Position numbers and translations under genes: made by a program. The notes beneath the pieces were generated by a model. The model did not search any database. It saw only the letters and a program-made list of their open reading frames with translations, and had not been told where the DNA came from. A stretch of DNA of 9,928 nucleotides from a virus (lineage: Duplodnaviria > Heunggongvirae > Uroviricota > Caudoviricetes), in the IMG/VR virus record IMGVR_UViG_2698536618_000006, positions 1-9,928 of that record. One strand, given 5' to 3'. Position 1 is the stretch's first letter, and each line of letters begins with the position of its first letter. Shown piece after piece: positions 4,514-8,226 of the stretch.

Positions 4514-4646
4514 TCTTTGGGACTCCTGGCTGATTAAGTATGTCGATAAGGCGTTTCCATCCGTCACGTAATTTACGGGTGATTCGTTCAAGTAAAGATT
4601 CGGAAGGGCAGCCAGCAACAGGCCACCCTGCAATGGCATATTGCAT
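4482..4646 (-). CDS. cIII: CIII, FtsH (HflB) protease inhibitor, 54 aa
   Basis: Internal ATG at 4646-4644 preceded by AAGGAG. Translation [54 protein letters not shown] matches lambda CIII. Confidence 0.9.
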   Translation of the reverse strand: MQYAIAGWPVAGCPSESLLERITRKLRDGWKRLIDILNQPGVPKNGSNTYGYPD

Positions 4647-4718
4647 GGTGTGCTCCTTATTTATACATAACGAAAAACGCCTCGAGTGAAGCGTTATTGG
4701 TATGCGGTAAAACCGCAC

Positions 4719-6280: not shown

Positions 6281-6553
6281 TCATCTCGCCGTCAGTTGTT
6301 TTGATTTCCTGTAGCCTGCCGCGTAAATGGCTACGTTTGGCAGGCAAACACTTCCACTGCATTCATCAACTTTCTTGCAGCGAAGACTTCCGAGTGATGC
6401 TGCTTTGTCTGCTCTGACGCAACCAGAGAGCTTTAGCGCAATTTTTCGCGCCAGTCGCTGCTCTTGCATCGCCTGTTCACGTTGAGCCTGTCTGCGTGCT
6501 CTGCGGCGATTTCTGGCGTTATCGTCAGCCAGATATGTAATGACTACTGTCAT
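6281..6553 (-). CDS. N: N-type transcription antitermination protein, 90 aa
   Basis: Internal ATG at 6553-6551 preceded by GGAGG (the track ORF begins at a GTG further upstream). Arginine-rich N-terminal motif DDNARNRRRARRQAQREQ and a C-terminus CLPNVAIYAAGYRKSKQLTAR like the N proteins of 933W and P22. First gene downstream of pL/nutL. Confidence 0.8.
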   Translation of the reverse strand: MTVVITYLADDNARNRRRARRQAQREQAMQEQRLARKIALKLSGCVRADKAASLGSLRCKKVDECSGSVCLPNVAIYAAGYRKSKQLTAR

Positions 6554-6863
6554 GTTGACCTCCGATGAAACAACTTTGGAATTGATAGTGATTGCAAAGT
6601 GGTTTCTGGCCCCTCGAATTGAGGGGCAGAAAGAGCATCTCGCCACCTAATAGGTCGATGCTCGGATCGAGAGATTTAATTAACCTCGGTTTTGAAGTTA
6701 TGCATTCACATAAATCCTCCTGTTGCATGTGCAGCATTGGCTGTGTTTGGCGGCTGCATTTCGCCTATGGAATTGACTTTGGCGGTGACGCGCCGGGTGC
6801 TTATCTTCCGGTTGCCGTCGTGCAGCTGCACTTCACGTCACCCCAAAGCCAACTACTCTTTGG

Positions 6864-6905
6864 TTCCCGCATTTCGGCGGGACAATCCCATCAATGTTAA
6901 AGAGC
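6864..6905 (-). promoter_or_regulatory. nutL: nutL: boxA GCTCTTTAACA plus boxB hairpin
   Basis: On the minus strand, GGCTCTTTAACA (plus 6895-6905), a 12-nt spacer, then UCCCGCCGAAAUGCGGGAA (plus 6864-6882). The same boxA core and an identical 19-nt boxB recur on the plus strand between cro and cII (8534-8578). Confidence 0.7.
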
Positions 6906-6951
6906 CTGCCAATCTGTTCCGTTTGGCTACCAGCGTCCTGCTGATGGTTAA

Positions 6952-6980
6952 AGAATACTGTAGGTATTTTATTTTGTAAA
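6952..6980 (-). promoter_or_regulatory. pL: pL early-left promoter: -35 TTTACA, 17-bp spacer, -10 TATTCT
   Basis: On the minus strand the -35 is at plus 6975-6980 and the -10 at plus 6952-6957. The -10 lies inside the OL1 operator and the -35 abuts OL2. The same -10 hexamer is used by the candidate pR. Confidence 0.6.
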
Positions 6981-7037
6981 TACTCAAGGTATTTATTTTG
7001 GTGAAATAATGATAAGCAAATGAATACAAAGGATATT
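6954..7037. promoter_or_regulatory. OL: OL operator array: three 15-bp sites with consensus AATAC-N5-GTATT
   Basis: AATACTGTAGGTATT (6954-6968), AATACTCAAGGTATT (6979-6993) and AATACAAAGGATATT (7023-7037, one mismatch). The first two are 25 bp apart, the same spacing as the OR sites. Confidence 0.6.
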
Positions 7038-7123
7038 TATTTTTTCGGCGTCTGCTTGTTCAGTGCTTTTTATGCGGGATATGTGAAGTGGATCCCGATA
7101 GCTATTGCTGCCGGGATTATGGG

Positions 7124-7492
7124 TTAGTCAGCGAAGGTTAAGACGAGAATTACCTTAATGATGTCTGCTACAACAGACACGGCCATAGATAAACCAAAGA
7201 CGATCCAAGCCATAGAGATGTCTTCACTACCATCGTATAGAGTTCCGTAATCACTGGTATAAGGCGTAAATGTCGCGCCTTGATACAATAGGTATAAGCT
7301 TGATCCATAGAGGATAAATGCAGATATCCCTTGTATTGCTATGATCACCAGAATCATGAAACGAGCTGATCTATGCGCCCAAGCCTGGCTTATTTTTTCT
7401 GATAGAGATTTCGCAAGAAAAGCATGCGCTAAGCCGTAAATTGTCGAGATTGCCAACATCCCAAAAAAGCTTGCTATAGCGGTTCCAACCAT
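7124..7492 (-). CDS. Small integral membrane protein (122 aa, three predicted TM helices), co-transcribed downstream of cI; function unknown
   Basis: ATG at 7492-7490 with AAGGGG Shine-Dalgarno 5 nt upstream; the track's 7513 start is a TTG. It begins 17 nt after the cI stop on the same strand. Three hydrophobic stretches: residues ~2-27, ~45-70, ~94-120. It occupies the position that rexA/rexB hold in lambda. Confidence 0.65.
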   Translation of the reverse strand: MVGTAIASFFGMLAISTIYGLAHAFLAKSLSEKISQAWAHRSARFMILVIIAIQGISAFILYGSSLYLLYQGATFTPYTSDYGTLYDGSEDISMAWIVFGLSMAVSVVADIIKVILVLTFAD

Positions 7493-7509
7493 AAGCGCCC
7501 CTTGCGTGA

Positions 7510-8226
7510 TCAAACCAGCCTTAGTTTTGTCTCAATTGCAACGCCTATAATCTTGCAGTTTCCATTGATTGGCACGAGAGGCCATGCAGGATTAAGTCCC
7601 TTGAGGTATTTATTTCCGCCGTCGATTATCAGCTTCTTGAATGTTGCTTCGTTAGAGTCAGAAAGTTTTGCTATGACCAAGCTGCCGTTGACCGCCTCCC
7701 TTCCGGTATCGAAAAGAACGAATGTTCCCTCTGGAATGCTTAACCCAACCGGTGCCGTCATTGAATCACCTTCCACTTTAAGCCAGAACGCATTACCTTG
7801 AATATGCGCGTCAGACTCAAGCCAAACATCTATGTCTTTAATGGTGTATGGTTCGCATGCTTCACACCACGAGCCAGCCTGGATACTGCTTAACACCGGA
7901 TACCTCTTTCCTGCTCTGTATTCCCCTGCATACCTTACGTTGGCATCGCTCTTAAGGCTTTCTGCCTGTTCTGCAACCTTGGCAGCAATTGACTGGCTAA
8001 AATCAGCAATTGAGACTTGCAACAACCGTGCAAAACCAGATGCAACCTCAACGTTTAGCGCGTTTCTGCCATTAAGATAATGCCCTACCGCTCCTTGGGT
8101 GATACCCAGTTCATCAGCGATTGAGTATTGGGTTATTCCCAATTCTTTCTTTTTTGACTCATACAAAGCCTTAAGCCGCTTAGCGTCTTCGAGCTGTTCT
8201 GTCGTCAGTGATTTTTTATTTTCCAT
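7510..8226 (-). CDS. cI: CI-type prophage repressor (HTH N-terminal domain, LexA-like S24 autopeptidase C-terminal domain), 238 aa
   Basis: ATG at 8226-8224. The N-terminal region resembles lambda CI (LTTEQLEDAKRLKALYESKKKELGITQ). The C-terminal domain resembles 434 CI / P22 C2, with an Ala-Gly cleavage site (IQAGSW), the catalytic Ser in GDSM and Lys in FKKL. Divergent from cro with operators in between. Confidence 0.9.
   Translation of the reverse strand: MENKKSLTTEQLEDAKRLKALYESKKKELGITQYSIADELGITQGAVGHYLNGRNALNVEVASGFARLLQVSIADFSQSIAAKVAEQAESLKSDANVRYAGEYRAGKRYPVLSSIQAGSWCEACEPYTIKDIDVWLESDAHIQGNAFWLKVEGDSMTAPVGLSIPEGTFVLFDTGREAVNGSLVIAKLSDSNEATFKKLIIDGGNKYLKGLNPAWPLVPINGNCKIIGVAIETKLRLV

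Follow-up and report, generated by a model that had tools for sequence, protein, structure and literature searches.

What fills the unusually long stretch between the pL promoter and the N gene of phage HK140, and what could it do there? Once a phage infects or a prophage is induced, N is the first regulator to be made, and how much of it there is affects whether lysis or lysogeny follows; in lambda, the N leader is a classic example of control by a transcription factor together with RNase III. We examined the question in the window, the whole stretch of 9,928 nucleotides of viral DNA analyzed here, which is 100% identical to phage HK140 and carries the pL operon on its minus strand. The untranslated N leader is 392 nucleotides long in HK140, compared with 222 nucleotides in lambda and 188 nucleotides in HK620. 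Alignment indicates that the HK140 leader is a composite, in which a leader of the lambda/HK620 type spanning 6945-6771 is combined with an optional cassette of 204 nucleotides, and this structured cassette of about 204 bases is previously undescribed. The main features of the locus are as follows.

6952-6980, minus strand: pL promoter (-35 TTTACA, 17-nucleotide spacer, -10 TATTCT), from a promoter scan and alignment to the annotated HK620 pL
6865-6905, minus strand: nutL, with boxA GCTCTTTAA at 6905-6897 and boxB TCCCGC-CGAAAT-GCGGGA at 6882-6865
6771-6854, minus strand: long stem-loop of 21 bp, with its 5' arm at 6854-6834, its 3' arm at 6792-6771 and a bulged G at 6783
6568-6771, minus strand: optional leader cassette of 204 nucleotides, delimited by the HK140/HK620 alignment and absent from HK620
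6563-6559, minus strand: N Shine-Dalgarno sequence GGAGG, upstream of N
6553-6281, minus strand: N coding sequence (Pfam PF25694 N_peptide, 1.8e-15; HK140 annotation)

Homology with the lambda pL start, AUCAGCAGGACGC, places the +1 of the pL transcript at 6945, and the initial 13 transcribed bases, ATCAGCAGGACGC, are the same in HK140 as in the lambda pL transcript. Measured from this inferred start, the 392 nucleotides agree with the spacing of about 390 nucleotides given in an earlier note on this DNA, which had described a long structured leader between nutL and N. The description was correct. The full leader folds at -143.8 kcal/mol, against -114.0 +/- 5.1 kcal/mol for shuffled sequences (z = -5.8). 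A pairing of the boxA-boxB spacer with 6593-6580, seen in the minimum-energy fold of HK140, is not kept in the CUS-3 type and was rejected. At the upstream end of the leader, nutL is annotated in both the HK140 and HK620 records; a boxA-like sequence is followed by a boxB hairpin upstream of the PF25694 N gene, and the 6-bp boxB hairpin appears in the fold. When contigs were scanned with the N protein as query, only 6 loci were found.

Past nutL (6905-6865) and before the N start codon at 6553, the pL transcript is predicted to form a long bulged stem-loop (fold -41 kcal/mol; z = -4.7 for the region 6860-6770). The inverted repeat GGTGACG/CGTCACC, which the earlier note had described as flanking a palindrome in a GC-rich element, lies at 6836-6842 and 6784-6790 exactly as proposed, and forms only the middle of the 21-bp stem. 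The 12-bp palindrome GTGCAGCTGCAC also exists (chance expectation 0.01), although at 6820-6831 rather than 6810-6821, and together with a CCGG...CCGG hairpin it makes up the apex of the stem. Other prophages swap this apex wholesale while the stem itself is kept, and all 13 of the 13 leaders examined have a stem of at least 20 bp, or about two helical turns. The arms are homologous to those of lambda (GGCUUUGGGGUG.../...CACC-N-CCAAAG), with the bulge at the matching place. Across 10 leader types, 11 of the 21 pairs show compensatory change, and covariation in the stem is strong; in the same set, stem cells are paired in 92.9% of cases versus 33-45% in slid controls, and none of 500 shuffles reached the observed values.

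The long stem of the lambda N leader is the mapped RNase III site. Because the HK140 stem is homologous to it in sequence, bulge and post-nutL location, and covaries as well, reading the GC-rich inverted-repeat stem as the homologue of the lambda RNase III site is well supported, and cleavage there is predicted. An RNase III or processing site had been suggested earlier for these elements in general; the suggestion is well supported for the GC-rich repeat. The palindrome, which sits in the replaceable apex, is not itself the conserved feature. The stem also differs from that of its relatives in one respect. Its 3' arm adjoins the N Shine-Dalgarno sequence in HK620 and in Cronobacter phage ENT47670, and lies about 12 nucleotides from it in lambda, whereas in HK140 the two are not adjacent, a gap of 208 nucleotides separating the end of the arm (6771) from the Shine-Dalgarno sequence (6563).

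This gap is where the cassette lies. Imperfect direct repeats, CCAAAGTCAATTC (6782-6770) and CCAAAGTTGTTTC (6579-6567), flank it, and comparison of a P22-type prophage leader with that of ENT47670 reveals a similar arrangement, an indel of 206 nucleotides between perfect 14-nucleotide direct repeats. Absent from lambda, HK620 and ENT47670, the cassette was found in 163 of 5426 E. coli genomes, in about 64 IMG/VR contigs and in 11 plasmids. It occurs with N genes of the HK620, P22 and phi21-like types, and its length is nearly constant among copies; on the 11 plasmids, which are conjugative, a core copy is found with no N-like gene downstream. Given that HK620 and ENT47670 were deposited as complete phage genomes and lack it, the cassette appears to be dispensable. 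From these alignments we infer that it is optional and mobile among lambdoid N leaders, recombining at the stem arms. The CUS-3 record labels this region only as a 'boundary sequence' (bsq5), and in S88-type recombinants the crossover lies inside an invariant 18-mer.

Within the cassette we distinguish four hairpins, a start-stop element and a second mini-ORF:

6730-6758, minus strand: hairpin H1, UGCAGC / GCUGCA with a variable loop (RNAalifold consensus)
6706-6721, minus strand: start-stop element, an exact match with Shine-Dalgarno AGGAGGA (6721-6715), UUU, AUG (6711-6709) and UGA (6708-6706)
6676-6705, minus strand: second mini-ORF of 9 codons, MHNFKTEVN, ending in the AU-rich block UUAAUUAAAU (read from the sequence)
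6633-6663, minus strand: hairpin H2, GAGCAUC...GAUGCUC plus an inner stem (RNAalifold consensus)
6603-6632, minus strand: hairpin H3, with a core at 6609-6627 and a lower stem UUUCU/AGAAA with a bulged C
6567-6606, minus strand: hairpin H4, GAAAC.CUUUG.AAU / AUU.CAAAG.GUUUC (RNAalifold consensus)

The hairpins are preserved as structures. The H1 stem is invariant in 33 sequences with loops that differ in sequence and length, and H2 shows compensatory changes at four pairs. H3 corresponds to the hairpin GCCCCTC-GAATT-GAGGGGC noticed earlier at 6609-6627, rightly described as having no U-tract; it extends beyond the 7 bp then claimed, to about 12-13 bp in total (6632-6603), and folds at -18.4 kcal/mol (z = -4.3 for 6636-6600). 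The same hairpin is built from other stem sequences in the CUS-3 type (UCCCCGUC/GGCGGGGA), in the diverged copy L106 (UCCCCACC/GGUGGGGA) and in the plasmid copy. H4, whose base overlaps the H3 lower stem by 4 nucleotides and whose 3' arm is the distal direct repeat, ends 3 nucleotides upstream of the N Shine-Dalgarno sequence, and a C-G pair is replaced by U-A in P22-type variants; a further link between H4 and the N Shine-Dalgarno sequence is not conserved in the P22 type or in L106. L104 and L106, the most diverged pair of copies, maintain H2, H3 and H4 with differing sequences, and loop sequences are not conserved in the cassette hairpins. Overall, 99.3% of cassette stem cells are paired, as opposed to 36-44% in slid controls, and compensatory change affects 6 pairs. 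With only about 7-8 independent variant lineages these statistics are modest, and 20 of 500 shuffles reach the observed number of pairs with a change on both sides. The G-U pairs in the long stem and in the cassette stems are possible only in the pL-sense strand. Taken together, the comparisons indicate that the cassette is under selection as a sense-orientation RNA.

The most strictly conserved element is the start-stop. A strong Shine-Dalgarno sequence followed by ATG-TGA-ATG, AGGAGGATTTATGTGAATG, had been placed at 6693-6711; it exists at 6703-6721, and its second ATG is not conserved in the commonest variant. AGGAGG-N4-ATG-stop was found in 64 of 64 cassettes anchored on H1 and in 38 of 38 anchored on H2/H3, both search anchors excluding the start-stop itself. 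The stop is TAA instead of TGA in L104 and L106, the only stop change seen, and the Shine-Dalgarno-ATG-stop array is retained in copies with barely alignable flanks. The element AGGAGGA-UUU-AUG-UGA therefore reads as a minimal ORF conserved beyond the level of the sequence around it. Start-stop and reinitiation in the AUGUGA context have been studied experimentally (PMC9841429), and start-stops of E. coli bind ribosomes (Meydan et al., bioRxiv 10.1101/520783). The GUG frame that overlaps AUGUGA has 3 codons in HK140 and 9 codons in the CUS-3 type, while L104 and L106 have AUGUAA with no GUG. A likeness of the cassette Shine-Dalgarno and start to the lambda N start (CAGGAG...AUG.AUGCA) is too short to be meaningful.

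Coding by the second mini-ORF has weak support. An ORF of 8-9 codons from the second ATG is retained in six variant types. In the CUS-3 type the ATG is changed to ATA with an in-frame stop, and there the 9-codon GUG ORF ends in the corresponding AU-rich block; in the commonest E. coli type the second ATG is lost. The only single-stranded AU-rich stretch of the leader lies directly behind the mini-ORF. In a simple folding model in which the mini-ORF region was forced to be unpaired, mimicking a bound ribosome, the predicted accessibility of the N ribosome-binding site was unchanged in 8 of the 8 variants folded, and attenuator-like coupling was rejected on this ground.

Other candidates in and around the leader were set aside. 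No minus-strand intrinsic terminator was found in 6450-7100, where H3 is followed by CAGAAACCAC and no U-tract; pL was the sole promoter-like site in a promoter scan of the leader region, and the leader had no Rfam match at E <= 1. The suggestion that the leader holds a small regulatory RNA is thus not borne out for an independent gene, which would lack a promoter, terminator and Rfam match of its own. Over the whole window, the sole real Rfam match (E <= 1) is the cIII thermoregulator at 4601-4659. The prophage small RNAs AgvB/AsxR and PasA-D are located near pR' and late genes, not in a pL leader, and are unrelated. Among the ORFs, that of HK140_048 (41 amino acids, 6831-6706) is broken by 2-nucleotide and 1-nucleotide indels in relatives and has no Pfam match, and a 70-amino-acid ORF at 6737-6525 was likewise rejected for want of a Pfam match. 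The antisense ORFs called by PGAP in UTI89 and other strains (129-138 amino acids) and the plus-strand ORFs of the window at 6592-6900 and 6692-6979 run through nutL and pL, have no Pfam match and are considered spurious. A lead to an 'ECs_2282 family zinc-binding protein' was also dropped: the match is antisense to the stem-loop and falls in an N-terminal extension that was probably called in error, and the true zinc ribbon of that protein is found elsewhere. The annotations of HK140_048 and of several antisense 'hypothetical proteins' called by PGAP in this leader should be corrected, as these are very unlikely to be genes.

How, then, might the composite leader work? In lambda, the RNase III cut relieves the repression of N translation exerted by nutL-bound N. 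Translation of N is described as repressed when N and Nus factors occupy NutL, and the intervening leader as highly structured (PMC5725501). By analogy, nutL of HK140 would recruit N and Nus factors, and host RNase III would, judging from homology only, cut the 21-bp bulged stem, which would separate nutL from the N-coding part of the mRNA. The cassette, having presumably spread among lambdoid N leaders via recombination at the stem arms, would form the newly created 5' terminus of the N mRNA after processing. Ribosomes at the start-stop or short ORF, together with the stable hairpins H2-H4, would shield the untranslated stretch from RNase E and Rho, and H4 would recreate beside the N Shine-Dalgarno sequence the stem context that the RNase III stem supplies in cassette-less phages. 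In this way the cassette would tune the amount of N. The start-stop and hairpins could plausibly be a translational control element for N, one of the roles suggested earlier, but the simple folding model showed no coupling to the N ribosome-binding site. Because the 3' arm is 208 nucleotides from the N Shine-Dalgarno sequence, the lambda logic may not transfer unchanged. Action of the cassette in cis on the N mRNA is the most likely reading, its mechanism being conjectural, and we put about even chances on the full picture of a lambda-type RNase III stem joined to an optional cassette that acts in cis.

That a core copy is found on 11 conjugative plasmids, with no N-like gene downstream, speaks against a role restricted to N. 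An extended reading, possible though rather doubtful, is that the cassette is a mobile, self-contained RNA regulatory module placed, in a subset of lambdoid phages, in the leader of N, the master early regulator, and combining 'ribosome parking' at the start-stop with three hairpins. N synthesis would then depend on the host's translational capacity or on RNase E/Rho activity, and recombination at the arms of the RNase III stem would carry the module from phage to phage and also onto plasmids.

Could the cassette instead have no function, having arisen through unequal recombination or duplication as the remnant of an older leader or N start, with conserved blocks that merely reflect recent spread and use as recombination joints ('boundary sequences')? 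The direct repeats at its flanks are indeed copies of the stem's 3' arm, and H4 looks like a collapsed stem base; cassette-less phage genomes are on record, S88-type crossovers fall inside the invariant 18-mer, the second ATG has been lost in the commonest E. coli type, and the CUS-3 record gives the whole region no other label than 'boundary sequence'. Such an origin sits poorly, however, with the near-constant length, with the compensatory changes that keep H2, H3 and H4 in the quite different sequences of L104 and L106, and with a Shine-Dalgarno-ATG-stop that survives where flanks barely align and whose stop has changed only from TGA to TAA; we regard it as unlikely. We think it equally unlikely that the role is transcriptional, with translation of the tiny ORF and tight structure shielding a leader of about 400 nucleotides from Rho termination before N exists. 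The exceptional length (392 versus 222 and 188 nucleotides) and strong structure (z = -5.8) of the leader, the conserved strong Shine-Dalgarno sequence and the lone AU-rich single-stranded stretch immediately behind the mini-ORF would all suit such a shield, yet lambda and HK620 manage with no leader ORF, and the extra length in need of protection comes from the cassette itself.

Two further readings look for a product of the cassette. RNase III or RNase E might free it, or a fragment such as H2-H3, as a trans-acting small RNA independent of N, for which one can cite its stable conserved hairpins, the RNase III-type stem immediately upstream and the plasmid core copy with no gene downstream. 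Against this, there is no promoter, intrinsic terminator, U-tail or Rfam match in the leader, the non-conserved loops leave no obvious seed region, and conservation is highest at a ribosome-binding site rather than at a region for pairing; we regard a small RNA as improbable. Still less probable is a functional small protein, either the 41-amino-acid HK140_048 or the 9-amino-acid MHNFKTEVN (6705-6679). HK140_048 is annotated in GenBank, yet besides its broken frame and missing Pfam match it has its first half inside the stem-loop. The 9-codon ORF has a strong Shine-Dalgarno sequence upstream and persists at 8-9 codons in six variant types; eight stop-free codons are, however, expected by chance about two-thirds of the time, the peptide is poorly conserved (MPTFNFEIN, MHEYQDYK), and the commonest type has ATA in place of this ATG, as well as a stop in the frame.

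HK140 carries, exactly between the predicted RNase III site and the ribosome-binding site of N, a natural, optional cassette whose start-stop is strictly conserved. The cassette-less twins HK620 and ENT47670 provide a natural comparison for the effects of distance, structure and upstream ribosome loading on N autoregulation, and the cassette offers a test case for what bacterial start-stop elements do. On the module reading, if true, the lysis-lysogeny decision would receive another physiological input in addition to RNase III.

The closest known system is the lambda N leader itself, with which HK140 shares the order pL, nutL, long bulged stem and N, the homologous arms and a variable apex (about 40 nucleotides in HK140 versus about 100 in lambda). 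Passages of PMC5725501 that cite Wilson et al. 1997 and 2002 describe lambda N autoregulation as relieved by RNase III; for HK140, cleavage and autoregulation are predicted from sequence homology. Unlike lambda, HK140 sets the stem apart from the N Shine-Dalgarno sequence by an additional 204 bases, and its boxB and the arginine-rich motif of its N are of the HK620 type. HK620 and HK140 have 6945-6772 in common, and in HK620 the stem stands directly at the N Shine-Dalgarno sequence, as in lambda.

Similar to the start-stop and AUGUGA sites of E. coli, the HK140 element has a strong Shine-Dalgarno sequence, an AUG and an immediate stop, with an overlapping GUG and an adjacent AUG for possible reinitiation. 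The described E. coli start-stops are inside genes or at gene starts, whereas the candidate in HK140 is in a phage 5' leader and precedes the regulated gene by about 155 nucleotides; L104 and L106, with AUGUAA and no overlapping GUG, depart from the AUGUGA pattern. Leader peptides and upstream ORFs occur in long bacterial 5' leaders (for example mgtL, corL and toiL), where, as here, several hairpins lie between a short ORF with its own Shine-Dalgarno sequence and the gene under control. In contrast to these leaders, folding of the HK140 cassette and its variants gave no ORF-linked alternative-pairing switch; the cassette has no intrinsic terminator or regulatory codons, and its ORF is reducible to a single codon. 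The bar minigenes of the lambda pL operon (barI and barII) are two-codon ORFs (AUG AUA stop) that act via peptidyl-tRNA drop-off. They too are tiny pL-transcribed ORFs with a strong Shine-Dalgarno sequence and no protein product of known use, but their location differs, and the HK140 ORF has one codon (AUG UGA), with next frames of 3 or 9 codons; having one codon only, the start-stop cannot act by peptidyl-tRNA drop-off as a bar minigene does. Finally, like the lambdoid 'boundary sequences' annotated in HK620 and CUS-3, the cassette borders are short conserved delimiters where phages recombined; unlike ordinary boundary sequences, those of HK140 are the arms of an RNA stem, and the piece they enclose is structured and conserved.

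The pL-N leader consists of a lambda-type part (6945-6771) followed by an optional insert, here called the cassette (6771-6568). Over 6400-7100 the sequence agrees at 100% with Enterobacteria phage HK140, and the records of HK140 and its richly annotated relative HK620 place the leftward early operon on the minus strand, in the order cI, a small gene, pL/OL, nutL, N, sieB (on the other strand), ral and further genes. The only sigma-70-like site in a promoter scan of 6450-7100 coincides with the annotated pL of HK620. Because the alignment of HK140 to lambda shows the initial 13 bases of lambda pL RNA, AUCAGCAGGACGC, without any change (6933-6945, minus), the HK140 +1 falls at 6945 and the leader measures 392 nt, close to the 'about 390' nt given in the earlier note. 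These 13 nt (AACAGCAGGACGC in P22-type leaders) are kept despite differing repressors, operators, boxB types and N genes (window and loci L012, L002, L052 and L069).

Features of the leader and its flanks
6980-6952, minus: predicted pL promoter, TTTACA-17-TATTCT
6905-6897, minus: nutL boxA
6882-6865, minus: nutL boxB hairpin
6854-6834 and 6792-6771, minus: arms of the long stem, 21 bp with one bulged base (fold)
6771-6568, minus: cassette, 204 nt, missing from HK620 (alignment)
6758-6730, minus: cassette hairpin H1, UGCAGC/GCUGCA, stem invariant, loop variable
6721-6706, minus: start-stop, AGGAGGA-UUU-AUG-UGA
6705-6676, minus: 9-codon ORF ending in an AU-rich single-stranded block
6663-6633, minus: cassette hairpin H2 (alignment and RNAalifold)
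6632-6603, minus: cassette hairpin H3, the hairpin of the earlier note plus a lower stem and bulge
6606-6567, minus: cassette hairpin H4, its 3' end 3 nt before the N Shine-Dalgarno
6553-6281, minus: N gene, Pfam PF25694 'N_peptide' (1.8e-15)

Two observations concern the wider operon. A 129-aa ORF between cI and pL (7124-7513, minus) is the homologue of HK620 hkaS and sits where lambda has rexB; its N-terminal part is hydrophobic as read from the DNA, and a Pfam search gave no match. Rfam RF01804, the lambda cIII thermoregulator, matches in full length at 4601-4659 (minus; 88.5 bits, E = 4.7e-21), and HK140 therefore has a lambda-type cIII translational RNA switch.

The leader is indeed structured, as had been claimed, and well beyond shuffled sequence, with a folding energy of -143.8 versus -114.0 +/- 5.1 kcal/mol for shuffles (z = -5.8); the sub-elements 6860-6770 and 6636-6600 reach z = -4.7 and -4.3. 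The inverted repeat at 6836-6842 and 6784-6790 had been placed correctly, and its 7 bp are the centre of the 21-bp bulged stem. The hairpin at 6609-6627 was likewise correctly located. Two further elements exist but lie elsewhere than described: the 12-bp palindrome at 6820-6831 (not 6810-6821), and the Shine-Dalgarno with ATG-TGA-ATG at 6703-6721 (not 6693-6711).

Judged by alignment with lambda and by lambda's own fold, the 21-bp stem is the homologue of the long stem in the lambda N leader, which is the mapped RNase III processing site of that leader. Its arms read GGCUUUGGGGUGUGUG / CACACACC-A-CCAAAGC in lambda and GGCUUUGGGGUGACGUG / CGCGUCACC-G-CCAAAGUC in HK140. When the arms were taken from 13 leaders (lambda, HK620, HK140 and ten prophage leaders), each gave a stem at least about 20 bp long and bulged at the same position. 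Across 10 distinct leader types and 21 pairs, 92.9% of the cells were paired, versus 33-45% with the partner slid by 1-3 columns, and none of 500 shuffles reached the observed values. Compensatory double changes occur at 11 of the 21 pairs. The apex of the stem is variable: a number of E. coli prophages and IMG/VR contigs carry 100-150 nt of unrelated sequence in place of the about 40 nt that include the palindrome, and the upper stem changes along with it, from GUGACGUG/CGCGUCAC to AUUGGAUG/CAUCCAAU. Since the apex is replaced while stem pairing is kept, selection acts on the stem and the palindrome is incidental. By homology with lambda, RNase III probably cuts the HK140 stem as well. In the accepted lambda model, NutL-bound N and Nus factors repress N translation across a highly structured leader (PMC5725501, which credits Wilson et al. 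1997 and 2002 for N repression and its RNase III modulation). One alternative apex (about 150 nt replacing 6833-6793; L007, L011, L006) has a 34-codon ORF, MNEQADARPMYKQRSWQAVTNLRLKTASLVVRAL, and shares with HK140 a sub-hairpin, (G)CCGG-N9-11-CCGG(C), beside the 3' arm.

Several gene annotations in this region are doubtful. HK140_048 (GenBank CDS, 41 aa, 'hypothetical protein', 6831-6706, minus) starts inside the stem apex, has its frame disrupted in relatives by 2-nt and 1-nt indels, and has no Pfam match; it is very probably a mis-annotation and not a gene. On the strand opposite pL, UTI89 and other E. coli genomes carry PGAP 'hypothetical proteins' of 129-138 aa that span nutL and pL (L004 1119-1508, L008 1419-1835, L010 1392-1808); these are probably spurious products of the GC-rich structured leader. 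In an E. coli XJ55 prophage (L003 1152-1706), where N is not annotated downstream of the leader, an 'ECs_2282 family putative zinc-binding protein' carries a long N-terminal extension encoded antisense to a stem-loop 3'-half copy that has 88% identity with window 6836-6770, and its start codon has probably been called too far upstream.

The cassette is a mobile, optional element. From pL through the stem 3' arm, HK620 hardly differs from HK140, and it then passes directly to the N Shine-Dalgarno (…CCAAAGUCAAU-CAUCGGAGG…), the short arrangement also found in lambda. Cassettes are rare among sequenced phages, with only HK140 and CUS-3 in the phage collection, and occur in 163 of 5426 complete E. 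coli genomes, in about 64 IMG/VR contigs and, as a core copy, on 11 nearly identical conjugative plasmids of Klebsiella, Serratia, Citrobacter and E. coli, where no N-like gene was found downstream. Most E. coli and IMG/VR copies accompany an HK620-type N and boxB; others precede a P22 gp24-type N with P22 boxB, a phi21-like N (L106) or two other downstream genes. The plasmid copy (L104 2001-2122, p08A21CPO005_A; 11 PLSDB plasmids of 169-219 kb) comprises an upstream hairpin, AGGAGGATTTATG-TAA, the 9-codon ORF MHKFKSESK, H2 and H3; it lies downstream of a 166-aa Cys-rich ORF and beside a convergent hok toxin gene, with no gene after it.

A cassette-bearing P22-type leader is matched by a twin without cassette in Cronobacter phage ENT47670: both flanks agree at about 99%, and the 206 nt that differ lie between two perfect copies of the 14-mer CAAAGCCATTTCAC (L052, L107). 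In HK140 the boundary repeats are imperfect: CCAAAGTCAATTC (6782-6770) forms the 3' arm of the RNase III-type stem, and CCAAAGTTGTTTC (6579-6567) that of H4. Because the flanking direct repeats copy the stem 3' arm, the cassette is gained or lost by recombination at that arm, and its insertion once more puts a stem with the same 3'-arm sequence in front of the N Shine-Dalgarno. H4 has the look of a collapsed second copy of the stem base, and the repeats suggest an origin by unequal recombination or duplication. Cassettes are also mosaic: the E. coli S88 type (L009) is CUS-3-like to the left of an invariant AGGAGGATTTATGTGAAT block and HK140-like to its right, and L008 changes type between H3 and the H4 loop.

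Selection in the sense strand acts on the RNA structures of the cassette and on its start-stop. In an alignment of 33 distinct copies (consensus by RNAalifold), 99.3% of cells at 37 pairs were paired, versus 36-44% in slid controls, and compensatory changes occur at 6 of the 37 pairs; the statistics are only moderate because independent lineages are few. Stronger evidence comes from the two most diverged copies, on the plasmid (L104) and in the phi21-like leader (L106): each, folded separately, forms H2 and H3 from differing stem sequences, and L106 forms H4 as well. H3 stems read GCCCCUC/GAGGGGC in HK140, UCCCCGUC/GGCGGGGA in CUS-3 and UCCCCACC/GGUGGGGA in L106. The stems include G-U pairs, possible only in pL-sense RNA. 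A boxB-like protein site recognised through its loop is unlikely because the loops are unconserved, and as to transcription signals, H3 is followed by no U-tract, as the earlier note had it, and the scan of 6450-7100 predicted no terminator or internal promoter. H3 and H4 cannot both form fully, because the H3 lower stem and H4 base share 4 nt; no conserved switch tied to this overlap was identified. In minimum-energy folds the N start codon lies in a small hairpin, AUGAC-AGUA-GUCAU (6540-6553, minus), and the N Shine-Dalgarno (within 6551-6564, minus) can pair with GUUGUUUC, the H4 3' arm, a pairing not kept in P22-type or L106 leaders.

The most conserved block of the cassette is AGGAGG(A/G)TTTATGT(G/A)AAT. 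To guard against circularity, IMG/VR was searched with two anchors, H1 and H2/H3, both excluding this block. The former retrieved 64 cassettes, with the exact 18-mer in 63 and an A-to-G spacer change in one; the latter retrieved 38, all with the block. It persists as CAGGAGGATTTATGTAAATGCAT in L104 and L106, though their flanks are barely alignable to HK140, and the sole stop-codon change, TGA to TAA in these two, is still a stop. Of the ATG-TGA-ATG in the earlier note, the first ATG and the stop are conserved, but the second ATG is not kept throughout. This second ATG opens the 9-codon ORF of HK140, and an ORF of 8-9 codons from it is retained in six variant types (peptides MHNFKTEVN, MHNFKTEIN, MHNFKTQIN, MPTFNFEIN, MHNFKSEEK, MHKFKSESK and MHEYQDYK). 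The CUS-3 type, which is the most frequent one in E. coli, has ATA at this position and then a stop in frame; here a 9-codon frame runs from a GUG overlapping the first AUG to the same AU-rich block. As the second ATG varies while the start-stop block is kept, the constant core is a strong ribosome-binding site and a start codon with a stop directly behind it, after which some short translation is possible. AUGUGA has been found experimentally to act as a start-stop where termination depends on RF2 and reinitiation uses the overlapping GUG (PMC9841429), and E. coli start-stops bind ribosomes and slightly modulate expression (bioRxiv 10.1101/520783).

RNase III cleavage in the stem would yield an N mRNA with the cassette as its 5' part. 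Ribosomes loaded at the start-stop, together with the compact H2-H4, might protect or tune this processed leader against RNase E or Rho, and H4 might restore the stem context beside the N Shine-Dalgarno. Against a simple model of this kind, forcing the mini-ORF region single-stranded left the predicted accessibility of the N ribosome-binding site unchanged in all eight variants. The plasmid copy without a downstream gene and the phage genomes on record without a cassette count against it too.

No Rfam family matched the leader, literature searches on HK620 with nutL and on HK140 yielded no description of the cassette, and the CUS-3 record labels the region only 'boundary sequence'. The small RNAs AgvB/AsxR and Pas map to other parts of the prophage. 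Among known systems, the first part of the leader is a member of the lambda N-leader kind, differing only in that its stem is not adjacent to the N Shine-Dalgarno, because the cassette separates them. The cassette itself resembles upstream-ORF or leader-peptide elements and bacterial start-stops.
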